Both the position numbers and the translations under genes were made by a program. This document shows, piece by piece, positions 17,966 to 63,109 of a stretch of 64,000 nucleotides of DNA. Under the pieces are notes generated by a model. The model had not been told where the DNA came from, searched no databases, and saw nothing but the letters and a program-made list of their open reading frames with translations. Where the stretch lies: the NCBI RefSeq assembly GCF_056712565.1, contig NZ_CM160072.1. One strand, written 5' to 3'. Positions within the stretch are counted from its first letter, which is position 1. Each line of letters opens with the position of its first letter.

Positions 17966-19924
17966 ATGATAGTAGGGATTTTTTTAAGGTATTTTAAAAC
18001 ATACAACGGAAATCATTACATACCGTTATCTTCTGGAAGTCAGTTTTGTGGAATTGTTGGTAACAATGGAATTGGCAAAAGTTCTGTTCTTGAGGCTTTA
18101 GATTCGTTTATTAATAACAAACCATGGAATATTAATTCTTCATTTAAAAGAACCTCCAGTGACAGACCTTCTCCACATATTGTTCCTTTATATCTTATAA
18201 AGCGAGAGGAATTACATGAAGATCATCATGCTAAAGCTGAAATCTTAACGCAATTAGTATTAGAATATAGCAATAGTAATGCTGATGTTACATTGACGCC
18301 AACAACACGAAATATAATTAATACGTTTTTTGAACATATTAACAAATTAAAAAGAAATTTAAATCTCCAAGATTATTTTTTGATCCCTCTGGGTGTCGAG
18401 AAAGATGGTGATGTAAGTATTTCGATTCTTAATGGGAAGAGTTTATGTCGACTTTTGGAGGTTGATAATCCCGATAATAAAGTTTCGAGCGAGTTGCTTA
18501 GTAAGCACTTTGGGTATTTATTACATCATGTCCGCCATAAGTATGAATATATATATATTCCAAAGGATATAGACTCTGAATCGTTTACGAAGCTAGAAAC
18601 AAGTGAAGTACAAAAGTTGATGGGTGAGTCTTTAGAGCAGATAATTAAAGATAGAATATCTGATAGAACCATAAGTCAAATCAATACAGGGCTTGCCAAA
18701 TTTCTGGATGGTGTTGAAGAGGAGCTTGAAGAATATGGTTATAGAACATCTGGCGAGAGACAATCGCGATTAAAAAAGAAAGATGTTTATAATTTGATTA
18801 TCGAAGCATTCTTCAAAGTTAGGAAATTAAATAAAAAGCAGAATTCAGGTTGGATTGAAATTAGCTCGCTAAGTTCAGGGGAGAAGCAACGTGCAATAAT
18901 GGATATTGCATATGGGTTTCTTACCAATCATAGAGAAAATGGCGATAATCTGATTATTGGAATTGATGAGCCAGAATGTTCTCTTCATATGTCTGCATGT
19001 TTTGAACAATTTGAAAAGCTCTATTCTATTAGTGGTATATGTGAACAATTAATATTTACTTCACATTGGTATGGCTATCTTCCAACCGTCGAAAATGGAT
19101 GTACCACAACTATCCTTAAAACAGATTCAACTCATCATTTTGAATTATATGATCTTGCCAGTTATAGAGAAGAAGTCAGGAAGAAAGTAAAAACCTCTTC
19201 CCCGGGTATGCCATTTGATATAAAAATAAAAAGTGTAAATGACCTTATACAATCCATAATATCTAGCTGTTTGGCTGAGAAACCTTACAATTGGTTGATT
19301 TGTGAGGGTACTACAGAAAAAATATATCTTTCGCATTATCTAAAGGACTTGGTAGAAAATAAAAGGCTAAGGATTGTGCCTGTAGGGGGAGCTAGTGAAG
19401 TTAAAAAAATATTTAAGCATTTAGAAGCTTCTTATGAAGAGTTCAAAAAAGACCTCAAAGGAAAAGTGTTCTTACTAACCGATACAGATTCAGAGTTGGT
19501 GTCATATGATACCCCAGTTATGCCGCATGTTGTTTGTAAGCGAATTGTTAGTGTAGGTGATTCAGTGAAGTTGGTTGATATTTCTTCCAATCCAGTTTCT
19601 CCTGCAACAGAAATAGAGGATTGTCTTAATCCTGTATCGTTTATAGAGGCTTTAACATCATTTTCTTCACGTTTTCCTGAGCTTCAGGCATTGCTGCCTA
19701 ATAGTAATGTTATGATAGATGAAAGACATTCATCGTTTGCTGCGATGGATTTGTCACCCAAGAACAAAAAAACGCTTGATGCTTTTTTTGACCGTGAAGG
19801 AATTAAGTTTGATTTTTCAAAGGAATATATTTCAATCTGTGAGCGAAATGAGCGGAAAAGGCCAGAGTGGATTGCCAAAATTGAAAATTTTTTTATAAGT
19901 GATAAACCTGTAAAGTTTAATTGA
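17966..19924 (+). CDS. OLD-family ATP-dependent nuclease (ABC ATPase + TOPRIM), 652 aa; accessory defence-type cargo
   Basis: Walker A GNNGIGKSS, ABC signature LSSGEKQ, Walker B LIIGIDEPE, H-loop FTSHW; C-terminal TOPRIM-like WLICEGTTE and LLTDTDSE; same motif layout as host YbjD in this window; AT-rich. Confidence 0.85.
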   Translation: MIVGIFLRYFKTYNGNHYIPLSSGSQFCGIVGNNGIGKSSVLEALDSFINNKPWNINSSFKRTSSDRPSPHIVPLYLIKREELHEDHHAKAEILTQLVLEYSNSNADVTLTPTTRNIINTFFEHINKLKRNLNLQDYFLIPLGVEKDGDVSISILNGKSLCRLLEVDNPDNKVSSELLSKHFGYLLHHVRHKYEYIYIPKDIDSESFTKLETSEVQKLMGESLEQIIKDRISDRTISQINTGLAKFLDGVEEELEEYGYRTSGERQSRLKKKDVYNLIIEAFFKVRKLNKKQNSGWIEISSLSSGEKQRAIMDIAYGFLTNHRENGDNLIIGIDEPECSLHMSACFEQFEKLYSISGICEQLIFTSHWYGYLPTVENGCTTTILKTDSTHHFELYDLASYREEVRKKVKTSSPGMPFDIKIKSVNDLIQSIISSCLAEKPYNWLICEGTTEKIYLSHYLKDLVENKRLRIVPVGGASEVKKIFKHLEASYEEFKKDLKGKVFLLTDTDSELVSYDTPVMPHVVCKRIVSVGDSVKLVDISSNPVSPATEIEDCLNPVSFIEALTSFSSRFPELQALLPNSNVMIDERHSSFAAMDLSPKNKKTLDAFFDREGIKFDFSKEYISICERNERKRPEWIAKIENFFISDKPVKFN

Positions 19925-19931
19925 TAAATGG

Positions 19932-19951
19932 TCGCAGGGGAAACCCTGCGA
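19932..19951 (+). terminator. Terminator-like hairpin after OLD-like gene
   Basis: TCGCAGGG-GAAA-CCCTGCGA (GNRA-type loop) 8 bp after the stop; weak T-tract. Confidence 0.45.
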
Positions 19952-19958
19952 TATTCTA

Positions 19959-20006
19959 CTAACCTCTAACCTCTAACCTCTAACCTCTAACCTCTAACCT
20001 CTAACC
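19959..20006. repeat. Heptanucleotide tandem repeat (CTAACCT) x ~6.9
   Basis: Six perfect CTAACCT units plus CTAACC read directly from the sequence; intergenic between cargo gene and V promoter. Confidence 0.95.
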
Positions 20007-20034
20007 AGAGGGTTTATTTCTTTTCAAAGAAAAT

Positions 20035-20052
20035 TGTATCTTCTTTTATACA
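20035..20052 (+). promoter_or_regulatory. Putative Ogr-dependent late promoter element upstream of V
   Basis: TGT-N12-ACA dyad (TGTatcttcttttatACA), the conserved activator site of P2 late promoters; P2 has a late promoter before V. Confidence 0.5.
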
Positions 20053-20099
20053 AAATAAGCTGTTTGAAGAGGTTGTGTAAAGCATGGAAAAATAATCTT

Positions 20100-20678
20100 A
20101 TGAATACACAACTCACAGAAATCATGCGCCTTATCACCAACCTGATCCGCACAGGGGTAGTCACTGAAGTGGACAAGGAAAACTGGCTTTGTCGGGTGAA
20201 AACGGGCGACCTTGAAACCAACTGGATTAACTGGCTGACGCTGCGCGCGGGTAATGCCCGCACATGGTGGCGACCATCGGAAGGTGAGCAGGTGGTGCTG
20301 CTGAGTCTGGGAGGAAATCTGGAAACCGCCTTTGCGCTGCCCGCTGTCTATTCGAATCAGTTCGCACCACCGTCGACGTCGGCGGAAGCCTGCGTGACAG
20401 AACATCCTGACGGTGGCTGGTTTGAATACGAACCAGCCACCGGGCGCTGGTATGTCAGGGGCATCAAATCCATGGTCATTGAGGCTGCTGACAACATCAC
20501 CCTGAAAACCAGAGAGTTTGTGCTGGAGGCTGACCGCACGCGTATTAACAGCGAAGTAGTGATCAATGGTGGTGTTACCCAGGGCGGCGGTGCAATGAGT
20601 TCTAACGGAATTGTGGTTGATGCACATCAGCATACTGGCGTCCTGAAAGGCGGCGACACAACCGGAGGCCCGGTATGA
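20100..20678 (+). CDS. V: Baseplate spike protein gpV
   Basis: N-terminus and WWRPSEGEQV region resemble P2 gpV; synteny. Confidence 0.85.
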   Translation: MNTQLTEIMRLITNLIRTGVVTEVDKENWLCRVKTGDLETNWINWLTLRAGNARTWWRPSEGEQVVLLSLGGNLETAFALPAVYSNQFAPPSTSAEACVTEHPDGGWFEYEPATGRWYVRGIKSMVIEAADNITLKTREFVLEADRTRINSEVVINGGVTQGGGAMSSNGIVVDAHQHTGVLKGGDTTGGPV

Positions 20679-21034
20679 CGCTTTATAGCGGGATGAACAA
20701 TACCAGCGGCAAAGCTATTACTGATATTGACCATCTGCGCCAGTCGGTGCGGGACATTCTGCTGACACCGCAGGGTAGCCGCATTGCCCGCCGGGAATAT
20801 GGTTCCCTGCTGTCGGCACTGATAGACCAGCCACAAAATCCGGCGTTACGCCTGCAGGTCATGTCGGCAGTGTATGTGGCGCTGAGTCGCTGGGAGCCAC
20901 GGCTGACGCTGGATTCCATCACCATCAACAGCAACTTTGACGGTTCTATGGTGGTGGAGCTGACCGGGCGGCGGAATAACGGTGTACCTGTGTCCCTTTC
21001 CGTATCGACAGGAGCAGAGAATGGCAGTGATTGA
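20675..21034 (+). CDS. W: Baseplate protein gpW
   Basis: 119 aa; synteny V-W-J-I. Confidence 0.8.
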   Translation: MTLYSGMNNTSGKAITDIDHLRQSVRDILLTPQGSRIARREYGSLLSALIDQPQNPALRLQVMSAVYVALSRWEPRLTLDSITINSNFDGSMVVELTGRRNNGVPVSLSVSTGAENGSD

Positions 21035-21929
21035 CCTTTCGCAGTTGCCTGCGCCGCAGATTGTGGATGTGCCGGACTTTGAGACGCTGCTTACCGAACG
21101 CAAGGCAGAATTTGTGGCGCTTCATCCGAAAGATGAGCAGGAAGCAGTGATCCGCACGCTGGAACTGGAATCTGAACCCGTCACCAAATTGTTGCAGGAG
21201 AATACTTACCGTGAGTTGCTTCTGCGCCAACGCATTAACGAAGCCGCGCAGGCGGTGATGGTGGCTTACGCGATGGGCGGCGATCTTGACCAGCTCGCTG
21301 CCAACTACAACGTGAAACGCCTGACGGTGACACCTGCTGATAATGACGCTGTGCCGCCCGTTGCAGCAGTGATGGAAAGCGATGAAGCGTTACGCCTGCG
21401 TGTGCCTGCAGCCTTTGAGGGGCTTTCAGTTGCGGGACCAACTGCAGCTTATGAATTTCATGCCCGAAGCGCCGACGGTCGGGTGGCGGATGCCAGTGCA
21501 ACCAGTCCGGCTCCTGCAGAGGTGGTGCTTACTGTCCTGAGCCGTGAAGGCGACGGAACAGCAGAAAAAGACTTGCTGGATGTGGTGGAGAAAGCCCTGA
21601 ACAGTGAGAACGTCCGCCCGGTGGCTGACCGTCTGACGGTTCGCAGCGCAGAAATCATCCCGTACCGTGTGGAAGCCACCATTTTTCTCTATCCGGGACC
21701 GGAAGCGGAGCCGGTAATGGCAGCGGCAAAAGCCAGCCTGCAGAAGTACATCGCCAGTCAGACGCGGCTTGGTCGGGATATTCGCCGTAGTGCCATTTTT
21801 GCCGCGCTGCATGTTGAGGGGGTTCAACGTGTGGAGCTGGCTTCACCGCTGGCTGATGTGGTCCTGAACAAAACACAGGCCGCATCATGTACGCAGTGGA
21901 GCGTAACCAACGGAGGAACGGATGAATAG
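21021..21929 (+). CDS. J: Baseplate protein gpJ
   Basis: ATG 21021 after GGAG; synteny. Confidence 0.85.
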   Translation: MAVIDLSQLPAPQIVDVPDFETLLTERKAEFVALHPKDEQEAVIRTLELESEPVTKLLQENTYRELLLRQRINEAAQAVMVAYAMGGDLDQLAANYNVKRLTVTPADNDAVPPVAAVMESDEALRLRVPAAFEGLSVAGPTAAYEFHARSADGRVADASATSPAPAEVVLTVLSREGDGTAEKDLLDVVEKALNSENVRPVADRLTVRSAEIIPYRVEATIFLYPGPEAEPVMAAAKASLQKYIASQTRLGRDIRRSAIFAALHVEGVQRVELASPLADVVLNKTQAASCTQWSVTNGGTDE

Positions 21930-22527
21930 TCTGCTGCCACTGGGTTCAACTTCACTGGAGCGCCGACTGGCGCAGACCTGTAGCGGGATTTCTGATCTGC
22001 AGGTGCCGCTGCGTGACTTGTGGAATCCGGCAACCTGTCCGGTCAGTTTCCTGCCTTATCTCGCCTGGGCGTTCTCTGTGGATCGCTGGGACGAGGGCTG
22101 GACAGAAAGCGTCAAGCGCCAGGTGGTGAAGGATGCTTTTTATATTCATCAGCATAAAGGGACCACCAGTGCCGTGCGGCGGGTGGTGGAGCCGTTCGGC
22201 TTTCTGATCCGCATTATTGAGTGGTGGCAGACCGGAGAGACTCCGGGCACGTTTCGTCTGGATATCGGCGTGCAGGACCAGGGCATCACTGAAGATACCT
22301 ATCTGGAACTTGAGCGACTGATAAGCGATGCCAAACCATGTAGCCGTCACATGATCGGCATGTCCATCAACCTGCAGACCAGCGGCCCGCATTGGGTGGG
22401 AGCTGCCAGCTATCTTGGCGAAGAAATCACGATCTATCCGTATATCAACGAAACAATTATTTCCGGCGGCACCGCGCATGAAGGCGGAGCGGTCCATGTT
22501 ATTGACACAATGAGAGTGAATCCATGA
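21922..22527 (+). CDS. I: Baseplate/tail-fibre attachment protein gpI
   Basis: 201 aa; synteny. Confidence 0.8.
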   Translation: MNSLLPLGSTSLERRLAQTCSGISDLQVPLRDLWNPATCPVSFLPYLAWAFSVDRWDEGWTESVKRQVVKDAFYIHQHKGTTSAVRRVVEPFGFLIRIIEWWQTGETPGTFRLDIGVQDQGITEDTYLELERLISDAKPCSRHMIGMSINLQTSGPHWVGAASYLGEEITIYPYINETIISGGTAHEGGAVHVIDTMRVNP

Positions 22528-23930
22528 GCACAAAATTTTATACCCTGCTGACGGATATTGGCGCGGCGAAACTCGCCAGCGCCGCCGCGCTCGGTGTGCC
22601 TTTAAAAATTACCCATATGGCGGTCGGCGATGGCGGCGGAACATTGCCAACGCCGGACGCCAAGCAGACAGCATTGGTAAATGAGAAACGCCGGGCTGCG
22701 CTGAATATGCTCTATATCGACCCGCAGAACAGCAGCCAGATTATTGCTGAACAGGTGATCCCTGAAAATGAGGGTGGTTGGTGGATACGTGAAGTGGGCC
22801 TGTTTGATGAGTCCGGGGTATTGATTGCCGTGGGAAACTGCCCGGAAAGCTATAAGCCGCAACTGGCTGAAGGCAGCGGGCGTACCCAGACCGTGCGCAT
22901 GGTGCTGATTACCAGCAGTACGGACAATATCACCCTGAAAATCGACCCTGCTGTAGTACTGGCAACTCGCAAGTATGTGGATGATAAGGCACTGGAGCTG
23001 AAGGTGTATGTGGATGACCAAATGGCAAAACACCTTGCCGCAGCGGACCCACATTCACAGTATGCGCCAAAAGCCAGCCCGATATTTACCGGAACCCCCA
23101 AAGCGCCGACGCCAGCGGCGGGGAATAATACCACGCAACTTGCGACCACCGCGTTTGTTCAGGCGGCACTGACGGCCCTTATTAATGGTGCGCCAGCCAC
23201 GCTGGACACGCTAAAAGAAATAGCCGCAGCCATTAACAATGATCCGAAATTCAGTACCACCATTAACAATGCGCTGGCACTGAAAGCGCCGCTGTCGAGT
23301 CCGGCACTCACCGGAACGCCAACAGCCCCTACTGCCGCACAGTCGGTTAACAATACACAGATTGCCACTACGGCTTTTGTGAAATCGGCGATTGCAGCAA
23401 TGGTGGGGTCTGCACCTGCGGCACTGGATACATTGAACGAACTGGCGGCGGCGCTGGGGAATGACCCGAACTTTGCCACGACAATGCTTAATGCGCTAGC
23501 AGGTAAACAACCGCTGGACAATACGCTGACTAATTTGAGTGGAAAGGATGTTGCTGGTCTTCTCGCATACCTTGGTTTAGGAGAAGCGGCGAAAAGGGAT
23601 GTGGGCACAGGAGATAATCAGATACCGGATATGTCTTTCTGGTCTTCCGCATCGGGTGGCGTTAATTTCCCTAATGGATTCCAGATGCGATTCGGTGCTA
23701 TCGCTGGTAATGGTGGAAAATTATTTTCTACGCCATTTACAAATCAGTGCTATGGCATTGTTTTCGGACAAACATATGGAGCCAACTACTGGATGTTCAG
23801 CCCGATGTACAGAGCATCTGATCTGAGTAATACCAGTTTTGCATTCATTAACAAAGCCTGGTCTGGAATTCCGGGGACAGGTGCTCAGGACGCTGGTGAA
23901 TCAGTTTTTTATATTGCAGTAGGGTATTAA
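22524..23930 (+). CDS. H: Tail fibre protein gpH (constant N-terminal part joined to currently expressed variable C-terminal part)
   Basis: 468 aa with Ala/Thr-rich repeats (TTAFVQAALTAL, TTAFVKSAIAAM); crossover site inside the gene. Confidence 0.85.
   Translation: MSTKFYTLLTDIGAAKLASAAALGVPLKITHMAVGDGGGTLPTPDAKQTALVNEKRRAALNMLYIDPQNSSQIIAEQVIPENEGGWWIREVGLFDESGVLIAVGNCPESYKPQLAEGSGRTQTVRMVLITSSTDNITLKIDPAVVLATRKYVDDKALELKVYVDDQMAKHLAAADPHSQYAPKASPIFTGTPKAPTPAAGNNTTQLATTAFVQAALTALINGAPATLDTLKEIAAAINNDPKFSTTINNALALKAPLSSPALTGTPTAPTAAQSVNNTQIATTAFVKSAIAAMVGSAPAALDTLNELAAALGNDPNFATTMLNALAGKQPLDNTLTNLSGKDVAGLLAYLGLGEAAKRDVGTGDNQIPDMSFWSSASGGVNFPNGFQMRFGAIAGNGGKLFSTPFTNQCYGIVFGQTYGANYWMFSPMYRASDLSNTSFAFINKAWSGIPGTGAQDAGESVFYIAVGY
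23560..23585. other. Inversion crossover site (gix/hix-like), left
   Basis: TTCTCGCATACCTTGGTTTAGGAGAA fits the Din-invertase site pattern TTnTCnnAAACCnnGGTTTnnGAnAA (one mismatch); inverted copy at 25351. Confidence 0.6.
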
Positions 23931-23931
23931 T

Positions 23932-24375
23932 ATGGAAATGGTTTATAGCGCCTCAAATAATAGTTTTTTCGCTAAAAATGATGTGGCGAAATATGAACAG
24001 GCCGGATGGGAACTTGCTGATATTGTCGAAGTGACATATGACACTTACCTGGAATTTATTGAAGACAGAACGTTGCAAGGGAAAGTACGCATCGCGGGTG
24101 ATGATGGCCTTCCCACCTGGGGGGAAATTCCACCGCCAACTCATGAGGAACAAATTGCCGCAGCCGAACTGGAAAAGCAGCAATTGATTAATCAGGTCAA
24201 CGAATACATATACAGTAAGCAATGGCCTGGTAAAGCAGCGATTGGTCGCCTGAAAGGTGAGGAACTGGCGCAATATAATTTGTGGCTGGATTATCTGGAC
24301 GCACTGGAACTGGTTGATACCTCCAGTGCTCCAGATATTGAATGGCCTACGCCTCCGGCAGTTCAGGCCAGATGA
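23932..24375 (+). CDS. Tail fibre assembly protein (orientation-1 copy)
   Basis: 147 aa ending ...DIEWPTPPAVQAR, like Tfa chaperones; follows H. Confidence 0.75.
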   Translation: MEMVYSASNNSFFAKNDVAKYEQAGWELADIVEVTYDTYLEFIEDRTLQGKVRIAGDDGLPTWGEIPPPTHEEQIAAAELEKQQLINQVNEYIYSKQWPGKAAIGRLKGEELAQYNLWLDYLDALELVDTSSAPDIEWPTPPAVQAR

Positions 24376-24949
24376 CGTCCGGCGCTGTGCTGGTATCTGT
24401 TGCCGTCACCGCATCAATGTAATCCAGCACAGCGTTAAGTCGGGTGTTTTCTGTCTGCGTCAGCTTCCGCCCGGCCTGCAATTTCAGTTGAATCAGACTA
24501 ATGGAAGCCATTGCAGTATCAATCAGTGACTGACGCTGTGCTTCTGCCGCGTCTAGTGTGGCGCTATGCTGTGCCTCAGTATCTGTCACCCATTTCTCAC
24601 CATCCCATTCATCGTATGGCGTTAACGGGGCGATAGTGGTTGTATTTTCAGGGTAATCACCTGGTGCTGTGATTTCTTTTGATTCTCCTGTTTCGGTGCT
24701 AAAAACGATTTCACCGCGATGGTCTGGCACATATTCCCATGAGTTAAAATCTGCAGAACGGCAGATTGCATAACCAGCTTTACATGTAACTGGTGAATCT
24801 AAACAGGAATATGCAGGGATACCGACACCAATGGCAAGATATTCATTTGAAGTAGAAATATATTCCCGAGTTTTACCATCATAGTTATAGACGGTAATAT
24901 TCCCCGCCTTCGTGGCAATAATCTCGCTATTTAATACGGCGTTATCCAT
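24347..24949 (-). CDS. Tail fibre assembly protein (alternative, orientation-2 copy)
   Basis: 200 aa; C-terminus ...APDVIWPELPEA mirrors the other Tfa; opposite strand inside invertible segment. Confidence 0.7.
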   Translation of the reverse strand: MDNAVLNSEIIATKAGNITVYNYDGKTREYISTSNEYLAIGVGIPAYSCLDSPVTCKAGYAICRSADFNSWEYVPDHRGEIVFSTETGESKEITAPGDYPENTTTIAPLTPYDEWDGEKWVTDTEAQHSATLDAAEAQRQSLIDTAMASISLIQLKLQAGRKLTQTENTRLNAVLDYIDAVTATDTSTAPDVIWPELPEA

Positions 24950-25404
24950 TATGCAGCCCTTACGATATAGTTAAATGCAATATTTCGTGGACGGGTTTCG
25001 CTTCCGCCATATGATGATGTAAATCCCGAATATGCCCGGTGTCCCGCATCCGTCGTATTAGCCCAGGAAGGACCGCTAGAAGTATAGATGACCCCATTGT
25101 AATCATGGCCGTGTGCCTCAATGCTCCCGTCCTGAGCAGACAGGAGAGTCCGTCCTGAATCAATTCCTCTTCCATCATCCCACCCACGAATGAATTCGCC
25201 GCGTAAATCTGGCAATTTATTTGTCGGATAAACTTTTGCCAGTTCCGGATACTCTTCGGCAGAAAAAGCTGCACCGTTGCATTTCAGCCAGCCTGTTGGC
25301 GGTGTGACTGAAGGCCACGGAACAGGCACACCTACGGGTAATGCAGAGCCTTCTCCTAAACCAACGTTTAAGAAAATGCAGCGATTACGACTAACTGGCA
25401 TCAT
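24949..25404 (-). CDS. Alternative tail-fibre C-terminal variable segment (expressed after inversion)
   Basis: 151-aa minus-strand ORF; shares GLGE junction with H at the crossover site. Confidence 0.7.
   Translation of the reverse strand: MMPVSRNRCIFLNVGLGEGSALPVGVPVPWPSVTPPTGWLKCNGAAFSAEEYPELAKVYPTNKLPDLRGEFIRGWDDGRGIDSGRTLLSAQDGSIEAHGHDYNGVIYTSSGPSWANTTDAGHRAYSGFTSSYGGSETRPRNIAFNYIVRAA
25351..25376. other. Inversion crossover site (gix/hix-like), right
   Basis: TTCTCCTAAACCAACGTTTAAGAAAA; inverted repeat of the site at 23560; adjacent to invertase gene. Confidence 0.6.
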
Positions 25405-25431
25405 CCCCGGTTTTTATTCAAGGAGATGATC

Positions 25432-25998
25432 ATGCTTATTGGCTATGTACGCGTGTCAACAAATGACCAGAACACCGATTTGCAACGTAGTGCGCTGAAC
25501 TGCGCGGGATGTGAGCGGATTTTTGAGGACAAAATCAGTGGCACTAAGTCCGACAGACCGGGGCTTAAAAAACTGCTCAGGACACTATCGGCAGGTGACA
25601 CACTGGTTGTCTGGAAGCTGGACAGGTTGGGGCGCAGTATGCGGCATCTTGTTACGCTGATAGAAGAGTTGCGCCAGCGCGGCGTGAATTTCCGAAGTCT
25701 GACTGACAGTATTGATACCAGTACCCCAATGGGCAGTTTCTTTTTTCATGTCATGGGTGCCCTGGCTGAAATGGAACGCGAACTGATAGTTGAACGTACC
25801 AGGGCAGGGCTGGCTGCAGCTCGTGCTAAAGGCAGAGTAGGTGGACGCCGTCCTAAGTTGACTACCGAACAGTGGGCACAGATTGGGCGTTTACTCGAGG
25901 CCGGAGAATCAAGACAGCGTATTGCACTGATTTTTGATGTAGGCGTTTCTACCATTTATAGAAAATTTCCGGCAAATAAGAGCAATGAATCTCCCTGA
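25432..25998 (+). CDS. Serine DNA invertase (Gin/Pin/Hin family)
   Basis: MLIGYVRVSTNDQNTDLQR...VVWKLDRLGRSM... nearly collinear with Mu Gin as I recall it; catalytic Ser in YVRVST; AGGAG RBS. Confidence 0.9.
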   Translation: MLIGYVRVSTNDQNTDLQRSALNCAGCERIFEDKISGTKSDRPGLKKLLRTLSAGDTLVVWKLDRLGRSMRHLVTLIEELRQRGVNFRSLTDSIDTSTPMGSFFFHVMGALAEMERELIVERTRAGLAAARAKGRVGGRRPKLTTEQWAQIGRLLEAGESRQRIALIFDVGVSTIYRKFPANKSNESP

Positions 25999-26046
25999 AT
26001 CAGCTTTATTTTGATTATCCCTGAAAGCAGACAAATACCGTCATTT

Positions 26047-26064
26047 TGTGTGAATAACGGTACA
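26047..26064 (+). promoter_or_regulatory. Putative Ogr-dependent late promoter element upstream of FI
   Basis: TGT-N12-ACA dyad (TGTgtgaataacggtACA) about 80 bp upstream of FI ATG. Confidence 0.5.
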
Positions 26065-26140
26065 ACTGCGCTTAGCTGTTTGTCAGGCACAATCACTTCA
26101 ACATAGGGCGAAGCCTAATCCAATCAGGAGGTTCGCCACT

Positions 26141-27313: not shown

Positions 27314-27322
27314 GGGGACAAC

Positions 27323-27838: not shown

Positions 27839-27892
27839 TGTATCTGAACGGCGCGGAATGCCGCGCCAGAACCCAATTTACAGGACAACAAA

Positions 27893-28195: not shown

Positions 28196-28321
28196 CGGTT
28201 GACGATCTGGTGGCTGATATCGCCACCATCTTTCACTGGCCGCCATCCGTTACTGACGTTATGGCGCTGACCGAAGTGCTGGAATGGCGGTATAAAGCGA
28301 TTCAGAGAAGCGGGGCCAACG

Positions 28322-33287: not shown

Positions 33288-33365
33288 CGCTGCCGCCATT
33301 TTGTCGCCATCGTTAAAAAACAGTGCTTCTAACATCATGATTTTAAACATCTTAAATTTCAGGCA

Positions 33366-33410
33366 ACAAAAAACCCATCAACCTTGAACCGAAATGGCGG
33401 GGTTGATGGG
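33366..33410 (-). terminator. Hairpin with T-tract on minus strand; ybjL terminator and/or part of the prophage-host junction
   Basis: CCCATCAACC ... GGTTGATGGG inverted repeat, A-run on plus-strand 5' side. Confidence 0.4.
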
Positions 33411-33522
33411 CTCCACAAAATGGGGACATCAAAGAAAAGCAGTGGCACTAATTAAGACTGATGCCCTGCGGAAAAGTTCTGCGGTTGTGCAAAAAAATTT
33501 CATTTTCAGGGCAACTTCAGTT

Positions 33523-35855: not shown

Positions 35856-35884
35856 AGCCCTCAACGCGAGGGCTTGTCAGACGA

Positions 35885-53434: not shown

Positions 53435-53444
53435 GTCTCCCTCC

Positions 53445-54446: not shown

Positions 54447-54482
54447 GGCATGTCCTTATTATGACGGGAAATGCCACCCTTT

Positions 54483-56201
54483 TTACCTTAGCCAGTTCGT
54501 TTTCGCCAGTTCGATCACTTCATCACCGCGTCCGCTGATGATTGCGCGCAGCATATACAGGCTGAAACCTTTGGCCTGTTCGAGTTTGATCTGCGGTGGA
54601 ATGGCTAATTCTTCTTTGGCGACAACCACATCCACCAACACCGGACCGTCGATGGAGAAGGCGCGTTGCAGAGCTTCATCGATTTCAGACGCTTTTTCTA
54701 CACGAATACCCGTAATGCCGCAGGCTTCGGCAATTCGGGCAAAGTTGGTGTCGTGTAGTTCGGTGCCATCAGTCAAATAGCCACCAGCTTTCATCTCCAT
54801 CGCCACAAAGCCCAGCACGCTGTTATTAAAGACGATAATTTTCACTGGCAGTTTCATCTGCACTACCGAGAGGAAATCGCCCATCAACATGCTAAAACCG
54901 CCATCGCCGCACATGGCGACCACCTGGCGTTCCGGCTCGGTTGCCTGCGCGCCCAGCGCCTGCGGCATGGCGTTAGCCATCGAACCATGGTTAAACGAAC
55001 CTAACAGGCGACGCTTGCCGTTCATTTTTAGATAACGTGCCGCCCACACCGTTGGCGTACCAACGTCACAGGTGAAAATAGCGTCATCGGCGGCAAAATG
55101 ACTAATTTGCTGCGCCAGATATTGCGGGTGAATGGCTTTCTCACTCGGTTTAGCTAAATCGTCCAGCCCTTTGCGGGCGTCGCGGTAATCTTCCAGCGCC
55201 TTATCCAGAAACTTGCGTTCGGTTTTTTCTTCCACCAGTGGCAGCAATGCGCGCAGGGTTGATTTGATATCGCCGACCAGCGCCATATCTACCTTGCTAT
55301 GCGCGCCGATGCTGGCTGGGTTGATATCAATCTGAATAATTTTGGCATCGGTCGGGTAGAACACACGGTAGGGAAACTGAGTACCGAGCAGCACTAACGT
55401 ATCGGCGTTCATCATGGTATGGAAACCTGACGAAAAGCCGATTAATCCCGTCATTCCAACATCATATGGATTATCGTATTCGACATGTTCTTTACCGCGC
55501 AGGGCATGGACTATAGGCGCTTTAATTTTCCCGGCAAACTCAACTAACTCTTTATGCGCCCCCGCACAGCCGCTGCCACACATCAGGGCGATATTGCTGG
55601 AATAACGCAGCAGTTGCGCCAGTTTGCGTAACTCTTCTTCTTCCGGTGTTACTACCGGCTGTGGCGCATGATACCAGTGGGTAGTTGCCCCTTCTGGCGC
55701 AGGTTTTAACGCCACGTCGCCCGGTAACACAACAACGGAAACGCCACGGTTAAGCACCGCTTTGCGCATAGCAATTGCCAGCACTTGTGGGATCTGCTCT
55801 GGGCTGGAAACCAGCTCGCAATAGTGACTACATTCGCGGAATAACTCTTGTGGGTGGGTTTCCTGGAAATAGCCGCTGCCAATTTCGCTGGAGGGAATAT
55901 GAGCGGCAATCGCCAGTACCGGAACGTGATTGCGGTGGCAATCGAACAGGCCGTTGATTAAGTGCAGGTTGCCGGGACCGCACGATCCGGCACAGACCGC
56001 CAGTTCTCCGCTAAGTTGTGCTTCAGCGCCAGCGGCAAACGCCGCCACTTCTTCATGCCGGGTGGACATCCACTCGATGGTGCCCATGCGATTAAGACTG
56101 TCACTAAGACCGTTCAGAGAGTCGCCCGTGACTCCCCAGATGCGTTTCACGCCTGCCGATTCGAGTGTTTTGGCGATATAAGCTGCAACCGTTTGTTTCA
56201 T
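54483..56201 (-). CDS. poxB: Pyruvate oxidase (ubiquinone), thiamine-diphosphate dependent
   Basis: 572 aa [28 protein letters not shown]... Confidence 0.95.
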
Positions 56202-56333
56202 GGTTCTCCATCTCCTGAATGTGATAACGGTAACAAGTTTAGTTCATCTGACGGAGGGGGAAGGGATGGGAGAAAAAGGAGGCACTAACGGTTAAATAGC
56301 CCGATGAAAGGAATATCATCGGGCATCAGGCGA

Positions 56334-57302
56334 TTATGCGAGAACCAAATCCCCCTGCGGATGGCAGGAGCAGGCCAGTACGTAACCTTCAGCGATTTCG
56401 GCGTCGGTCAGCGTCATTGTGCTGCTCACCGTATATTCACCGGAAATCACTTTCGTCTTACAGCAGCCGCAAACACCCGCACGGCAGGCGGCGACAACCG
56501 GAACGTTATTGCTTTCCAGCGCCTCCAGTAGCGTGGTGCCAACCGGAGCGTAAAATTCTCGTGCCGGTTGCAGTTTGGTGAATTTCAGACCACTGGTCGC
56601 CGCTTCCGCTACTGGGGTGAAGAATTTCTCTTTAAAGAAACGCGTCACGCCGAGCGCTTTCACTTCCTGCTCTACCCAATCCATATATGGAGCAGGGCCA
56701 CAGGTCATCACGGTACGTGAGGCTAAATCAGGAACGCGAGTCAGCAGTTCGCGAGTGAGACGACCAGCGATAAAGCCTTCGGTAACGTTATTTTCCGCCA
56801 CCAGCGTTACCGGATAGTTACGCCACTCATCGGCGAAAATCACATCCTGCGGCGTACGCACGTTGTAGATCACCTGCACATCGGCCTGTGGACGGTTCTT
56901 CGCCAGCCAGCGACGCATCGACATAATCGGCGTGACGCCGCAGCCTGCCGCCAGCAACAGGAATTTATCTTCTGCTTTATCGTCGCAGGTAAATTCCCCC
57001 ATCGCGTCCGAAAGCCAGAGATAATCACCGCGTTTTACATCGCGCGTCAGCCACCGGGAGCCGACACCGTCATCAATCCGCCGCACGGTCAGGGTGATGT
57101 ATTCACTCACGCCTGGCGTGGAGGAAATGGTGTAAGCACGCAGCGTTTCTGCTGAGTTTCGCACGCTGACCAGCGCATATTGCCCGGCGCGATATGGGTA
57201 GTAATCGTGGCAAATCAGGGAAATCGTCCACACATCCGGCGTTTCTTGCGTAATGTGATGAACCTGCATCCGCCACGGGCATTGATTCGTTGGCATCGTC
57301 AT
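56334..57302 (-). CDS. hcr: NADH oxidoreductase for hybrid-cluster protein (Hcr)
   Basis: Start ATG 57302 (MTMPTNQCPW...); C-terminal 2Fe-2S Cys cluster CRAGVCGCC. Confidence 0.9.
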   Translation of the reverse strand: MTMPTNQCPWRMQVHHITQETPDVWTISLICHDYYPYRAGQYALVSVRNSAETLRAYTISSTPGVSEYITLTVRRIDDGVGSRWLTRDVKRGDYLWLSDAMGEFTCDDKAEDKFLLLAAGCGVTPIMSMRRWLAKNRPQADVQVIYNVRTPQDVIFADEWRNYPVTLVAENNVTEGFIAGRLTRELLTRVPDLASRTVMTCGPAPYMDWVEQEVKALGVTRFFKEKFFTPVAEAATSGLKFTKLQPAREFYAPVGTTLLEALESNNVPVVAACRAGVCGCCKTKVISGEYTVSSTMTLTDAEIAEGYVLACSCHPQGDLVLA

Positions 57303-57313
57303 CGACAAACTCC

Positions 57314-58966
57314 TTACGCGCTCAACAGTTGCTTCATGTCTTCTTCAACAGTGGTGATAGAACGCAGGCCGAATTTCTCGTTCAGCACCGCCAGCAGGTC
57401 TGGTGTCAGGAAACCAGGTGCAGTCGGGCCGGTGACGATATTTTTCACACCCAGAGAAAGCAGCGTCAGCAGAATGACAATCGCTTTCTGTTCAAACCAG
57501 GAGAGCACCAGCGACAGCGGCAGATCGTTCACCCCACAGCCCAGTTTCTCTGCCAGCGTTACCGCCAGAATAATTGCTGAGTAAGCATCGTTACACTGAC
57601 CAGCATCTACCAGACGCGGCAGACCTTCGATATCGCCAAACTCAAGTTTATTAAAGCGATATTTACCGCAAGCGAGGGTCAGGATCAGGCAGTCATCCGG
57701 CACGCTGGTGGCGAAATCGGTGAAGTAGTGACGCTCGCCGCGTGCGCCGTCACAGCCGCCAAGCAGGAAGATATGACGCAGTTTTTCACGGCTCACCAGA
57801 TCAATCAGCGTATCGGCTGCGCCAAGCAGTGTCTGGCGACCAAAGCCCACGGTGATCAGGTGCGGAATTTCGCTGTACGGGAAGCCCGCCATCTGTTGCG
57901 CCTGGGCAATGACTGCAGAGAAATCTTCGCCATCCAGATGACGCACACCCGGCCAGCCAACGATGCTGCGGGTCCAGATACGATCGTCATAAGCGCCTAC
58001 GGTTGGGTCGATGATGCAGTTCGAGGTCATCACGATGGGGCCTGGGAAACGAGCGAACTCCACTTGCTGATTCTGCCAGCCGCTGCCGTAGTTACCGACC
58101 AGATGCTTGAATTTACGCAACTCCGGGTAACCATGCGCAGGCAGCATTTCGCCGTGGGTGTAGACATTAACGCCCGTGCCTTCGGTCTGTTCCAGCAGGT
58201 TGTAGAGATCTTTGAGATCGTGACCGGAAATCAGAATGCATTTACCCGCCGTCGCTTTGACATTGACCTGGGTTGGGGTCGGGTGACCGTATTTACCGGT
58301 TTCGCCTGCATCCAGAATGCTCATCACTTTGAAATTCATCTGGCCGATTTCCATTGAACACTCAAGAAGCGCGTTCATATCGGCAGGCCAGGTCCCCAGC
58401 CACGCCATGATTTTATGGTACTGGGCATAAATATCGTTGTCGTATTGACCGAGAACATGCGCGTGTTCCATATAGGCCGCCGCACCTTTCAGGCCATACA
58501 GGCACAGCAGACGCAGGCCGAGAATGTTTTCGCCAATCGCCGCTTTATCTTTGTTAGGGGTAAATTCTGCTGCCTGACGTTGCAGCTCGCCGAGATCGTC
58601 GCTCACCAGTTGCAGGTCAGCCATCGGGTTATCGACGCGGGCGTTGGCATCTACAGCCAGGCATTGTGCTTTCAGCGCCTCGCGCAGGGCAATCGCTTCA
58701 CGAGCGTAGCCGACAATACGCGGAGAATCGAAGTTAACGTTGGTCAGGGTTGAGAAAAAGGCACGTGGCGCAAAGCTGTCTACATCGTGGTTGATGATGC
58801 CGTATTCACGTGCTTTCACTGCCCAGGCCGAAAGCCCTTGCAGCGCCGCGATGAGTAAATCCTGAAGGTCAGAGGTTTCCGCCGTTTTACCACACATCCC
58901 CTGCGCGTATGAGCAGCCGTTTCCTGCCGGAGTACGGATAGTTTGTTCACATTGCACACAAAACAT
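57314..58966 (-). CDS. hcp: Hybrid-cluster protein / hydroxylamine reductase (Hcp)
   Basis: Start ATG 58966 (MFCVQCEQT...); N-terminal Cys cluster. Confidence 0.95.
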
Positions 58967-59062
58967 GATCACACCTTTTAAAGTTATATTTAATATACAT
59001 GTTTAAGGTTAAGACGCTTAACGCGGGGATAAAAGAGATTTTTAATGCAACTTTAAGGGAGA

Positions 59063-59076
59063 TTGATTTAGCGCAA
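59063..59076. promoter_or_regulatory. Possible FNR-type half-palindrome upstream of hcp (weak)
   Basis: TTGATTTAGCGCAA versus consensus TTGAT-N4-ATCAA (second half-site 3/5). Confidence 0.25.
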
Positions 59077-59109
59077 TTTTGGCGGCAGAGATCTACCGCC
59101 AGAGAGGTA

Positions 59110-60009
59110 TTATGCAGAGAAAAAGGCGATGAGAATCGGCACTAACAGACTAAGAATAAAACCGTGAACAATCGCCGCCGGGACCATATCCAGCCCGCCT
59201 GTACGTTGAAGAACGGGCAGGGTGAAATCCATCGACGTCGCACCGCATAAGCCCAGTGCAGTAGAGCGGCTACGGCGAATCAGCCCAGGGATTAACATAA
59301 TAGCAATCAGCTCACGGGCCAGATCATTAAAAAACGCCGCGCTCCCGATTACCGGACCAAAAGATTCGGTCAATAAAATACCGGAAAGAGAATACCAGCC
59401 GAAACCGGAGGCCATTGCCAGCGCGGTATTGATGGGAAGATCAAGAATAAAGGCGTTAATTAAACCACCAATTAATGAACTGGCAACCACCACCACGGCG
59501 ACAATCATTCCCCGGCGATTAAGGACAATCTGCTTTAAGGTCATGCCATTATTGCGCAACTGAATACCGACGAGGAAAAGTAGCAGAATTAAGGTGTATT
59601 CACTGGCTTCGGTCGCGTGTTGTAAGAAAGCCAGTCCACTCAGACCAATGGCAAAACCAATCACTACTACGCCGCACAGTTTTAGCGACTCCAGCGCCAT
59701 CGCAATACGCGACGGGAGTTTTTCTTGATGATGGTGGTTGCGCCATGGCAGGCCGCGCTCCAGCCACATCAGGGCGGCAATATTACACAGTAAAATAACG
59801 GTAATACTGACGGCAGAATAATGCAGAATTGCCAACAAGTTACTGGCGAGGTTATCGAGAAACGCCAGACTGATACCCATAAAAAAGAGAATAAGGTAAA
59901 CCATCCAACTTAATAGCTGATTAATAACTCTTAATGCAGCTTTTTGGCGAAGCGGAATGAGGTAACCCACAATCAGGGGAACCAGAATGATTAACAGCCC
60001 AGAAAACAT
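59110..60009 (-). CDS. ybjE: Lysine exporter LysO (YbjE)
   Basis: Start ATG 60009 (MFSGLLIILVPL...), polytopic membrane protein. Confidence 0.9.
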   Translation of the reverse strand: MFSGLLIILVPLIVGYLIPLRQKAALRVINQLLSWMVYLILFFMGISLAFLDNLASNLLAILHYSAVSITVILLCNIAALMWLERGLPWRNHHHQEKLPSRIAMALESLKLCGVVVIGFAIGLSGLAFLQHATEASEYTLILLLFLVGIQLRNNGMTLKQIVLNRRGMIVAVVVVASSLIGGLINAFILDLPINTALAMASGFGWYSLSGILLTESFGPVIGSAAFFNDLARELIAIMLIPGLIRRSRSTALGLCGATSMDFTLPVLQRTGGLDMVPAAIVHGFILSLLVPILIAFFSA

Positions 60010-60329
60010 GAAAACCCAGTCCTTGCAAAGAAGATTCGAAATGCGCGATGACACACTACTGAAAGCAGAAGGACGAGTAAAGTTGCAATTAAAAGGAAAT
60101 GTTATGCATCAGAGGGGGATTTTTAATTCTATATGAGTGTTTAGCGTTGTTGCGCTCCTTTCATGTGCAATGCCATATAAAGCCACTGGCGCAGGGAGCG
60201 GCCAGTCGCCGCCGCCCCCTGCACCCCCGGCCTTCGGGGAACGCCTCGGCGATTTTAACGCCACCAACACCCGTGCGGTTTGTAACGTCGAAGATAAAAC
60301 CACCAGGGCAGACAACATGCCAATGCTAA

Positions 60330-61025
60330 TTAATCGCGTTTTTCCAGTAGAGTCCGGTAAATCAGACCACCGATAATACCGCCGACAATTGGCACCACCC
60401 AGAAGAACCACAGTTGTTCTAATGCCCAGCCGCCCTGGAAGATAGCAACCGCAGTACTGCGCGCCGGGTTAACGGAAGTGTTAGTCACCGGAATACTGAT
60501 TAAGTGAATCAGGGTTAAGGCCAGACCAATGGCAATTGGCGCAAAACCAGCAGGAGCGAATTTGTCAGTTGCGCCGTGGATCACCAGCAGGAAACCTGCA
60601 CTCAATACCAGTTCAACTACCAGCGCGGAAAGCATGGAATAACCGCCTGGTGAATGCTCGCCATAACCGTTAGAAGCAAAACCGCTGGCTGCCGCGTCAA
60701 AACCCGTTTTACCACTGGCAATTAAATACAGCAGCGCCGCCGCAACAATACCGCCGACAACCTGGGCAATTACGTAGCCAACGACTTCTTTTGCCGGGAA
60801 ACGTCCGCCAGCCCATAAACCAATAGTGACCGCCGGGTTAAAATGACCACCAGAAATATGACCAACAGCAAAGGCCATTGTCAGAACGGTCAGACCGAAC
60901 GCCAACGCCACGCCGGCAAAACCAATGCCTAATTCCGGGAAGCCTGCGGCCAGTACGGCACTACCACAGCCGCCAAAAACAAGCCAGAAAGTACCAAAAC
61001 ATTCAGCTGCTAATTTTCTGAACAT
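60330..61025 (-). CDS. aqpZ: Aquaporin Z
   Basis: Start ATG 61025 ([15 protein letters not shown]...); two NPA motifs. Confidence 0.95.
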
Positions 61026-61450
61026 ATCCACCTCAATTAAAAATTGACCCTGTGAAAAATATGGTCGTTTTATAGGGTCGTCGTAAAAAAGTGACGACGG
61101 AAATAATGCGCGGCTATTTTAAAAACGAAGGCAAGTCATTCACCAGATAAATAAATCCAGTAAATTTGATTTAAGGCAACAGCGGGTTGCCCCATATAGT
61201 CATTTGTCTGATTGACAGTGTAGTGCAAGCGAAAGATTTAATCCTTTAGGCGTAATAAAAAATAATTTATCATGCTAATTATTTGATTTTGTTGTTTTTG
61301 CAGGCTTATCAGCAAGAGGGAGTATAACGCGATTATTCGCTCATTTTTCAGACATTTGCCATGCTTAAATGTGATGTCATCACGTATTAGCATGGCCTTT
61401 CCCGTTATACTGCCAGCGTAAAGGATAAGTCACATATTTCTGGAGGGGAT

Positions 61451-63109
61451 ATGATTCTTGAGCGCGTTGAAATTGTGGGTTTTCGCGGTATCAACCGTTT
61501 GTCGTTGATGCTGGAACAAAACAACGTCCTGATTGGGGAGAACGCGTGGGGTAAATCCAGCTTGCTGGACGCCTTAACCCTGCTGCTATCGCCAGAATCA
61601 GATCTCTACCATTTTGAGCGCGATGATTTCTGGTTCCCGCCGGGAGATATCAACGGGCGAGAACATCATCTGCATATTATTTTGACCTTCCGCGAATCGC
61701 TGCCAGGCCGACATCGGGTTCGCCGCTATCGGCCGCTGGTAGCGTGCTGGACGCCATGCACCGATGGTTATCACCGTATTTTTTATCGTCTGGAAGGGGA
61801 GAGTGCGGAAGACGGCAGCGTGATGACACTGCGCAGTTTTCTCGATAAAGACGGACATCCGATTGATGTTGAGGATATTAACGATCAGGCTCGTCATCTG
61901 GTGCGTTTAATGCCGGTGCTGCGCTTGCGTGATGCCCGTTTTATGCGCCGTATTCGTAACGGCACGGTGCCAAATGTCCCCAATGTGGAAGTCACCGCGC
62001 GCCAGCTCGATTTCCTCGCCCGTGAATTATCCTCACATCCGCAAAATCTCTCTGATGGGCAGATTCGTCAGGGACTTTCCGCAATGGTGCAACTTCTTGA
62101 GCATTATTTTTCTGAGCAGGGAGCTGGACAGGCGCGATATCGTTTAATGCGGCGGCGAGCCAGCAATGAGCAACGAAGCTGGCGCTATCTGGATATCATC
62201 AACCGGATGATTGACCGACCTGGAGGGCGCTCGTATCGGGTTATTTTGCTCGGCCTGTTTGCTACTTTATTGCAGGCAAAAGGCACATTGCGACTGGATA
62301 AAGACGCCCGTCCATTGTTGCTGATCGAAGATCCAGAAACCCGTTTACACCCCATTATGCTTTCAGTTGCCTGGCATCTGTTGAATCTTCTGCCATTGCA
62401 GCGCATTGCCACCACCAACTCTGGCGAGCTGCTTTCGTTAACGCCGGTAGAGCATGTTTGCCGACTGGTACGTGAGTCCTCGCGCGTTGCCGCCTGGCGT
62501 CTGGGACCGAGTGGCTTGAGTACCGAAGATAGCCGACGCATCTCCTTTCACATTCGTTTTAACCGTCCGTCATCGCTGTTTGCCCGCTGTTGGCTGCTGG
62601 TGGAAGGGGAAACGGAAACCTGGGTTATCAATGAACTGGCGCGTCAGTGCGGACATCATTTTGATGCCGAAGGGATCAAGGTCATTGAGTTTGCCCAGTC
62701 CGGACTAAAGCCACTGGTTAAATTTGCCCGGCGAATGGGGATTGAATGGCATGTACTGGTCGATGGCGATGAAGCAGGGAAGAAATATGCCGCTACGGTA
62801 CGCAGCCTGTTGAATAACGATCGGGAAGCCGAACGAGAACATTTAACGGCGTTACCGGCGCTGGATATGGAACATTTTATGTATCGCCAGGGATTTTCCG
62901 ATGTGTTCCACCGCGTGGCTCAAATCCCGGAAAATATACCGATGAATCTGCGCAAAGTTATCTCGAAAGCGATCCATCGCTCTTCCAAACCCGATCTTGC
63001 CATTGAAGTGGCAATGGAGGCCGGACGTCGTGGTGTGGACTCCGTACCGACGCTGCTGAAAAAAATGTTCTCACGCGTGCTGTGGCTGGCGCGCGGTCGG
63101 GCCGACTAA
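61451..63109 (+). CDS. ybjD: YbjD, OLD-family ATPase/TOPRIM protein (host core gene)
   Basis: Walker A GENAWGKSS, Walker B LLLIEDPE, TOPRIM-like LLVEGETE and LVDGDEAGKK. Confidence 0.9.
   Translation: MILERVEIVGFRGINRLSLMLEQNNVLIGENAWGKSSLLDALTLLLSPESDLYHFERDDFWFPPGDINGREHHLHIILTFRESLPGRHRVRRYRPLVACWTPCTDGYHRIFYRLEGESAEDGSVMTLRSFLDKDGHPIDVEDINDQARHLVRLMPVLRLRDARFMRRIRNGTVPNVPNVEVTARQLDFLARELSSHPQNLSDGQIRQGLSAMVQLLEHYFSEQGAGQARYRLMRRRASNEQRSWRYLDIINRMIDRPGGRSYRVILLGLFATLLQAKGTLRLDKDARPLLLIEDPETRLHPIMLSVAWHLLNLLPLQRIATTNSGELLSLTPVEHVCRLVRESSRVAAWRLGPSGLSTEDSRRISFHIRFNRPSSLFARCWLLVEGETETWVINELARQCGHHFDAEGIKVIEFAQSGLKPLVKFARRMGIEWHVLVDGDEAGKKYAATVRSLLNNDREAEREHLTALPALDMEHFMYRQGFSDVFHRVAQIPENIPMNLRKVISKAIHRSSKPDLAIEVAMEAGRRGVDSVPTLLKKMFSRVLWLARGRAD

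Follow-up and report, generated by a model that had tools for sequence, protein, structure and literature searches.

We analysed a 64,000-nucleotide stretch of an Escherichia coli chromosome (hereafter the window; NCBI RefSeq assembly GCF_056712565.1, contig NZ_CM160072.1), for which strain SF-468 is the closest complete genome. The window holds two genes for OLD-family ATPase-Toprim proteins, one carried as cargo by a P2-like prophage and one, ybjD (oldB), belonging to the host core genome:

17966-19924, plus strand: prophage cargo gene with its ATG at 17966, encoding a 652-amino-acid stand-alone OLD-like protein (from the open reading frame and its translation)
61451-63109, plus strand: ybjD (oldB), core Class 1 OLD-family ATPase-Toprim gene, 552 amino acids (from Pfam, PADLOC, BLASTP and distribution)

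The prophage gene is probably a single-gene anti-phage defence of the Class 1 OLD type, acting by superinfection exclusion or abortive infection. The reading as a whole, in which a stand-alone Class 1-type OLD defence nuclease in the prophage acts independently of core ybjD, is given a probability of roughly 0.7; the defence role is argued from the domain content of the protein together with its genomic association. A sequence-only reading had already paired these two open reading frames, with the same ends, as a prophage cargo gene and a host core gene, and this pairing holds: both proteins score above the Pfam cut-offs for AAA_15 and OLD-like_TOPRIM (PF20469).

Domain content of the cargo protein

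The cargo protein (RefSeq record WP_000635034.1, labelled merely 'AAA family ATPase') consists of two parts, an ABC-type ATPase head that contains a helical insert and an OLD-type Toprim nuclease domain extended by helices at its C-terminus. The ATPase part has the motif set of its class, namely Walker A (GNNGIGKS, G32-S39), the ABC signature (LSSGEKQ, 302-308), Walker B (D334-E335-P336-E337) and the H-loop (H367). The C-terminal part has the conserved Toprim glutamate (C446-E447-G448-T-T-E451), the DxD motif (D506-T-D508) and further acids (T548-E-I-E551), and the predicted metal-binding acids are E447, D506, D508, E549 and E551. An alignment of 46 relatives (47-91% identity) shows more than 130 invariant positions, among them all ATPase and Toprim catalytic motifs, and E447, D506, D508 and E551 are still invariant once relatives of 31-33% identity join the alignment. 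The main parts are placed as follows:

18059-18082, plus strand: Walker A (P-loop) codons for G32-S39, of which G32, N34, G35, G37, K38 and S39 are invariant in the 46 relatives
18869-18988, plus strand: ABC signature to Walker B/D-loop, IGIDEPECSLH (residues 331-341), with L302-Q308, D334, E335, P336, S339, L340 and H341 invariant
19208-19921, plus strand: C-terminal Toprim nuclease domain with its helical extension, residues 415-652

Against Pfam the protein matches AAA_15 at 64.1 bits (2.3e-17, cut-off 32.1) and OLD-like_TOPRIM at 28.9 bits (1.8e-6, cut-off 23.2). A profile of its family aligns with P2 Old in hhalign (89% probability, E 2e-6) over residues 238-487, from Walker B to the Toprim glutamate, and here the IGIDEPECSLH stretch pairs with IFIDEPELYLH of P2 Old. 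In the AlphaFold model of the whole protein (pLDDT 77) a helical insert at about residues 200-300 is poorly defined; it lies at the same place as the dimerisation insert of TsOLD and GajA. Foldseek searches of this model against the PDB put GajA (8x5i, 1.9e-13) and the OLD protein of retron Eco8 (9lpa, 2.6e-12) on top, with SMC/Rad50 heads ranking lower. These alignments span about 670-705 columns; their TM-scores of about 0.3 are low, which is usual for models of several domains. Judged from the predicted model, the full-length fold thus resembles the solved OLD proteins. Overall, every testable feature of the OLD family is present in the cargo protein, which is predicted to have ATPase and metal-dependent nuclease activity.

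Several known systems can be compared. P2 Old is likewise a single-gene, AT-rich and non-essential cargo of a P2-family phage, with an ABC-type ATPase followed by a Toprim domain in the same motif order; in contrast to the cargo gene it occupies the hotspot from gpA to cos/portal, and it measures 586 amino acids against 652. Its triggers (the RecBCD state and lambda ori hairpins) and its tRNA substrate are not established for the cargo protein. The 'Old family endonuclease' of Vassallo et al. is P2 Old itself and not the prophage cargo gene. Vc OLD of Vibrio cholerae (Class 1) is again a stand-alone OLD, which sits on a mobile defence element; it acts as a nickase after theta replication, and its defence requires Walker A, Walker B and the Toprim acids (PMC12392090). 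Likened here to the cargo protein by description, it is evidence that a divergent Class 1 OLD is able to defend alone. For Gabija GajA (Class 2 OLD) the PADLOC models match the cargo protein at the P-loop only, and a GajB/UvrD-like helicase was found neither beside the cargo gene or its examined relatives nor beside ybjD. A retron of type I-B (Class 3 OLD) was rejected as well: no reverse transcriptase is annotated, an Rfam scan of the whole window returns RybB as its sole match, and the spacers beside the cargo gene measure 145 bp and 175 bp.

Genomic association of the cargo gene and its family

The cargo gene is the only gene of a foreign module that replaces the junction between the phage genes gpS and gpV:

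17383-17820, plus strand: gpS (virion morphogenesis), left flank of the slot (annotation; 20384-20821 in locus L001, offset 3001)
17733-20098, plus strand: whole AT-rich cargo module of 2.4 kb (from homology breakpoints and the shift in GC content)
17866-17895, plus strand: candidate sigma-70 promoter TCTACA-18-TATACT, with 9/12 matches
17954-17957, plus strand: ribosome-binding site GGAG, 8 nucleotides before the ATG of the cargo gene, read by eye from the sequence
19932-19951, plus strand: stem-loop TCGCAGGG-GAAA-CCCTGCGA, 8 nucleotides past the stop codon of the cargo gene
20035-20052, plus strand: TGT-N12-ACA dyad upstream of gpV, presumably a late activator site of the Ogr/Delta type, read from the sequence
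20100-20678, plus strand: gpV (baseplate assembly), right flank of the slot (annotation)

Aligned with 186-like prophages whose slot is empty, the window loses similarity after 17732, within the gpS 3' end, and regains it at 20099. At 17733 the GC content drops from 0.569 to 0.33, and it stays at 0.32-0.35 in the module against 0.57 in gpS. From these breakpoints and the GC drop we delimit the foreign module as 17733-20098. It is made up of a substituted gpS 3' end, a leader of 145 bp, the OLD-like gene, the stem-loop, a tandem repeat and a late-promoter region of its own for gpV. The cargo gene itself has a GC content of 0.337 (0.26 at third codon positions, GC3), whereas the rest of the prophage and the host DNA stand at 0.52. 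The stem-loop, a possible terminator or RNA-stabilising hairpin, keeps the same stem in L013 and L014, whose modules are 91% identical; a canonical U-tract is not present after it. The annotation of P2 places an activator-binding site for pV at the position equivalent to the TGT-N12-ACA dyad, a sequence that we take to be the consensus of P2 late promoters.

Between the stem-loop and the late promoter of gpV we also observe a perfect heptamer tandem repeat, (CTAACCT) x 6.9, at 19959-20006. Its copy number is 5, 6, 7, 8 or 9 among otherwise near-identical E. coli prophages, and the modules of L013 and L014 have another repeat at this position, (CCTCTG) x 8 and x 13. This repeat is hypervariable; its place is conserved and its sequence is not.

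The slot is variably filled. In four of five sampled E. coli prophages the interval between gpS and gpV is empty (68 bp) and the fifth has a DUF2971 gene on the other strand, while P2 holds its non-essential orf30 there. Across 5426 complete E. coli genomes the cargo gene occurs in 13, invariably between gpS and gpV. Twelve of these copies are intact and at least 99.7% identical, and the remaining one (H8/H33) is annotated as two coding sequences. A slot between core genes that is empty or otherwise filled in relatives, a deviant composition and a patchy distribution are the marks of a 'moron', and the cargo gene has all three. These results agree with the sequence-only reading, which had taken the gene for prophage cargo.

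A search with the family profile returned only 753 cluster representatives at E <= 1e-3 out of 1.84 billion, and 299 of these reach E <= 1e-30. Nearly all full-length matches are 625-690 amino acids long, and the family amounts to roughly 300 clusters at 50% identity. Going by sequence comparison, this family is isolated: PADLOC lacks a full-length model for the cargo protein, its best match there being a generic one of the AriA/AAA_15 type, and no NCBIfam family covers it.

In IMG/VR, 32 loci with family members were found, nearly all of them P2-like, and the relatives occupy three slots. Between gpS and gpV the identities are 100, 91, 91, 59 and 33%; between gpA and the portal gene (the classical tin/old hotspot) they are 46-47%; and directly after a 186-type cI, before int, they are 31-36%. 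The last arrangement is seen in many 186-like prophages (L026-L042), with a relative of about 662 amino acids and a GC content of about 0.3 lying between cI and int on the same strand. In one of these (L032, 5390-9115; GC 0.28-0.34), whose CI is 46% identical to the CI of the window, the relative begins 21 nucleotides past cI. Given this position before int, it lies within the lysogenic operon and should be expressed in lysogens.

Outside phages the surroundings vary, and no recurring neighbour or partner gene was seen in Halopseudomonas, Sulfurimonas, Atlantibacter, Pantoea, Enterobacter, Stutzerimonas and the 32 viral loci examined. Relatives lie in integrase-bearing islands in Halopseudomonas and Atlantibacter, in the latter beside a SIR2_2 gene (in L004 and L005 the neighbours are an integrase and a SIR2_2 gene). 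In Enterobacter a relative follows genes for an Rhs toxin and its immunity, and in Pantoea and Sulfurimonas relatives are flanked by housekeeping genes. On a contig of Stutzerimonas nitrititolerans (L011, 5001-6923) a 47%-identical relative is embedded in a type I restriction-modification operon in the order hsdM-hsdS-gene-hsdR, overlapping hsdR by 4 bp; such embedding was seen once. The slots of P2 have been recognised as hotspots of defence (PMC9122126; bioRxiv 10.64898/2026.02.27.708500), and capture by several of them, together with a position in the lysogenic operon and the embedding among restriction-modification genes, makes up the usual signature of anti-phage cargo.

If the cargo protein behaves like P2 Old, Vc OLD, GajA and PARIS, its ATPase part would assemble into an oligomer that stays latent until it senses a sign of infection, which could be a phage protein or phage DNA that is aberrant or replicating. 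Binding or hydrolysis of nucleotide would then free the Toprim site for two-metal cleavage of nucleic acid. The substrate might be host tRNA, as with AriB and with P2 Old, which is a tRNase (PMC12445682; bioRxiv 10.64898/2026.07.10.737580), or else phage DNA, which would be nicked as by Vc OLD and GajA. In either case cleavage would halt the competing phage. The two OLD-family proteins of the window would work independently, their co-occurrence following from the core status of ybjD.

The relative in the restriction-modification operon of L011 has the position of PrrC, between hsdS and hsdR. PrrC, encoded by the prr locus, is an anticodon nuclease with an N-terminal ABC-like NTPase and a C-terminal nuclease domain that is not a Toprim. 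The cargo family, in contrast, has a Toprim domain, and the two are likened by position and domain layout; by this analogy a single locus slightly favours a tRNase or guard model. A more specific view, which we hold tentatively and would place somewhat below even odds, takes the cargo gene as the first noticed E. coli member of an unnamed and sequence-isolated lineage of about 300 clusters of 625-690-amino-acid stand-alone OLD-like defence proteins, overlooked by the PADLOC models, shuttled by P2-like phages among at least three slots and found in some bacteria at the PrrC position. Such a protein would be an abortive-infection nuclease, possibly a tRNase guarding restriction or another host function, with a trigger unlike that of P2 Old.

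The core gene ybjD and the competing readings

The gene ybjD stands alone between aqpZ and ybjX, and its 3' end shares 4 bp (63106-63109) with that of the convergent ybjX:

60330-61025, minus strand: aqpZ, upstream neighbour of ybjD (annotation)
63106-64000, minus strand: ybjX (VirK/YbjX family), convergent with ybjD and cut by the window end (annotation)

It is present in 5424 of the 5426 genomes at 95-100% identity, is about 89% identical in Salmonella and Citrobacter and has a host-like composition (GC 0.530, GC3 0.54); it is a vertically inherited core gene. Reportedly, a paper on overlapping transcription mentions it a single time. Its product has Walker A (GENAWGKS, G29-S36), Walker B (E293-D-P-E296), the Toprim glutamate motif (V384-E385-G-E-T-E389) and D438-G-D440, and with these ATPase and Toprim motifs and its stand-alone context it belongs to the OLD family as a Class 1 member. 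Matches to Pfam are 45.9 bits for AAA_15 (cut-off 32.1), 59.8 bits for OLD-like_TOPRIM (3.8e-16, cut-off 23.2) and 532.8 bits for DUF2813 (7.6e-160, spanning the whole ATPase half). Of the PADLOC models a GajA-type one fits best (2.1e-79), with the Old model at 2e-24, in BLASTP YbjD matches P2 Old (4e-12), and among solved structures its sequence matches TsOLD (6p74, 0.0018). This half of the pairing is already published. YbjD was the K-12 OLD homologue that seeded the OLD classification in 2019 (PMC6755086), and a May 2026 paper describes it as a Class 1 OLD under the name oldB (PMC13261556). In the latter study induced YbjD lowered plaquing of Bas18 and Bas20 and reduced the plaque size of Bas64-68, the Toprim domain being dispensable for the induced phenotypes; the K35A variant was more toxic, no RecBC-linked killing was found, and a chromosomal knockout left phage susceptibility unchanged (PMC13261556).

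Between cargo protein and YbjD the shared order of motifs (Walker A, Walker B as DEPE or EDPE, Toprim glutamate, DxD) is as the sequence-only reading had described it, as are the strong difference in sequence (BLASTP, best E = 1.0) and the contrast in base composition. A YbjD without Toprim catalytic residues would have spoken against the pairing; the Toprim glutamate and DxD are both kept. In hhalign the profile of the cargo family aligns with YbjD at the P-loop only (28% probability), and a profile of the C-terminal part aligns with the C-terminus of YbjD at the Toprim-glutamate motif only (3% probability, not significant). The homologues recovered for YbjD, from Citrobacter and Salmonella, were all at least 89% identical to it, too close for a diverse YbjD profile. 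Homology of the two is drawn from the shared Pfam models, from the chain that leads from the cargo family over P2 Old to YbjD, and from the fold. The stand-alone ATPase-Toprim layout is common to both, whereas YbjD differs in DUF2813, in its preference for GajA-type models, in core status, in composition and in length. The two are clearly remote homologues only, of separate origin; the independent origins that had been suggested are thus upheld by the lack of pairwise similarity and by differing composition and distribution.

The further suggestion that coexistence of the two genes could matter, through interference or redundancy, finds no support. Since ybjD occurs in nearly every E. coli, its co-occurrence with the cargo gene carries no information, and every E. 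coli with an OLD-type system (P2 old, Gabija, PARIS, retron Eco8) will show the same coexistence. A functional interaction between the two proteins, be it as mixed oligomers or through interference or redundancy, is therefore highly improbable. Both are predicted ABC-type ATPases, a class that acts as oligomers, and both could in principle respond to phage, given the phenotypes of induced YbjD; the undetectable pairwise similarity, the unrelated helical insert regions and the silent native knockout argue the other way.

A number of observations weigh against a Class 1 OLD defence role of the cargo gene. Its 652 amino acids, and the 625-690 of its family, exceed the range of about 500-600 given for Class 1 OLDs, within which Vc OLD falls (PMC12392090). 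No full-length match to the P2 Old profile was obtained, coverage being partial both in hhalign and for the PADLOC Old model PDLC02358 (E 2.4e-11, 164/578 positions, 272-435). The single protein finds nothing significant among the PDB sequences; the family profile finds AriA as its sole match (0.0065). By sequence, then, the links to characterised OLDs are weak. Megablast and tblastn searches with the cargo gene, run over 50,697 phage records (P2 among them), returned no match. A promoter scan around the gene gave 9 sites against 8.9 expected from shuffled sequence, which puts the candidate promoter at chance level, and the scan found no terminator-like site between gpS and the cargo gene. Being oriented like the late genes, the cargo gene may be read with the late operon and not in the lysogen. 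With two deletions in its head genes (described below), the prophage may no longer be under selection as a phage. Searching the literature for the RefSeq accession returned nothing, and no experiment on the cargo protein or a family member was found. Finally, the dispensable Toprim domain of YbjD implies that a nuclease mechanism cannot be assumed for every OLD protein. Class 1 OLDs are, however, defined by context, as single genes that lack a neighbouring helicase, retron or separate Toprim partner (PMC10568477), and the flanks in the window are gpS and gpV; by context the cargo gene is a Class 1 OLD despite its size and its partial match to P2 Old.

It might be argued that the cargo protein is instead a fused PARIS-type protein (Class 4, AriA-AriB in a single chain), in which an AriA-like scaffold senses a phage anti-restriction protein and frees an AriB-like Toprim tRNase. 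The top PADLOC match is indeed an AriA model (9.9e-22, 358/373 positions), and a fused AriAB model matches faintly (7.3e-9), although no stretch of that match is individually significant. The matching AriA model (373 positions) moreover acts like the generic AAA_15 (374 positions), a model that YbjD matches as well. AriA is the best match of the family profile among solved structures, fused forms have been described (PMC9122126), and the relative inside a type I restriction-modification operon would suit a sensor of anti-restriction proteins. Unlike AriA/AriB of PARIS (Class 4) and AbiL, however, the cargo protein is a single fused chain without the DUF4435 signature: Pfam DUF4435 is not matched and PF20469 is above its cut-off instead, while in the Foldseek search PARIS chains are absent from the top 50, which is headed by GajA and the Eco8 OLD. 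We regard a fused PARIS-like identity as unlikely, and it is disfavoured.

A role outside defence, either in the lytic cycle (as a late nuclease for breakdown of host DNA or for DNA processing) or as a selfish addiction module, is also given a low probability. The position between two late operons in late-gene orientation, with no terminator-like site after gpS and a promoter prediction at chance level, would fit a lytic role. The gene is, however, present in just 13 of about 1050 genomes with this phage region (absent from about 99%) and is thus dispensable for the phage; relatives placed in the lysogenic operon from cI to int, or in the classical tin/old hotspot of defence genes, speak against this reading, and those in non-phage islands, among housekeeping genes and in a type I restriction-modification operon are a misfit for a P2-specific lytic function. 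We consider it quite improbable that the gene is a remnant in decay and has lost its function. The head-gene deletions of this prophage and the one copy annotated as two coding sequences point that way; against this, the open reading frame is full length, it retains all of the more than 130 residues invariant across the 46 relatives, and the other copies are intact and near-identical. A stand-alone OLD-type defence nuclease is therefore the reading that we retain.

Prophage and host setting, and significance of the gene

The prophage that carries the cargo gene is of the 186/P2-like kind; attL and most of int, at its left end, are just beyond the window edge. The gene order is int, CI, CII, Fil, a Dam-type methylase, gpA, a cargo slot, portal, terminase, head genes, lysis and tail genes, D and ogr. 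The 26-bp core of the attachment site, TAAATTTCAGGCAACAAAAAACCCAT, lies at 33353-33378 and overlaps the 3' (terminator) end of the small RNA gene rybB; on integrating at this end the phage thus restores the gene.

1-33378: 186/P2-like prophage, with attR at 33353-33378 (from annotation, a collinearity map and the 26-bp direct repeat)
33365-33443, minus strand: rybB (Rfam RF00110, 105 bits)
Right of the prophage: ybjL, ybjM, grxA, ybjC, nfsA, rimK, ybjN and potF onwards (annotation of the closest genome)
Right window end: hcp, lysO, aqpZ, ybjD and ybjX (annotation)

The window is not collinear with SF-468, having two losses in the terminase/scaffold/capsid region and a flipped tail-fibre segment. 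In comparison with SF-468 and all other complete E. coli genomes with this prophage, 231 bp are absent at 12548/12549 and 554 bp at about 13049/13050. The smaller deletion takes out the 5' end of the terminase gene gpP and the divergent P/O late-promoter region. The larger takes out the end of gpO and the start of gpN, leaving an in-frame O::N fusion reading frame (12581-13930) and 4 bp of microhomology (GCCA) at the junction. Given these deletions, this copy of the prophage looks unable to make heads, unless the source assembly has errors there.

The invertible tail-fibre segment (23560-25376) is bounded by 27-nucleotide inverted repeats (23560-23586 and 25350-25376) and adjoins a Cin/Gin-type invertase gene (25426-25998). 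Its orientation, opposite to that in SF-468, indicates that the host-range switch is active in the lineage.

A second candidate defence cargo is seen at 7892-9852, in the classical P2 tin/old hotspot from a DinI-like gene to the portal gene (GC 0.37-0.44), so that the prophage has two putative defence loci:

7892-8317: 141-amino-acid open reading frame with no assigned function, on the strand opposite to the protease pair
8762-9409: trypsin-like protease (PADLOC PDC-M35A, 4.5e-94)
9406-9852: 148-amino-acid protein overlapping the protease gene (PDC-M35B, 4e-58)

Summarizing, the pairing of ybjD with another OLD-type gene is routine and of little weight. The value lies in the prophage gene, a member of a compact and widespread family that behaves like defence cargo and that the PADLOC 2.0.0 models do not capture as a system. 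It is an addition to a known kind, the OLD family, as a very divergent lineage. Stand-alone (Class 1) OLDs are the least understood class, with phenotypes just for P2 Old, Vc OLD and induced YbjD. A lineage this divergent, with natural variants in three prophage slots, would offer a handy comparison for learning how trigger and substrate, tRNA or DNA, are determined in these proteins.

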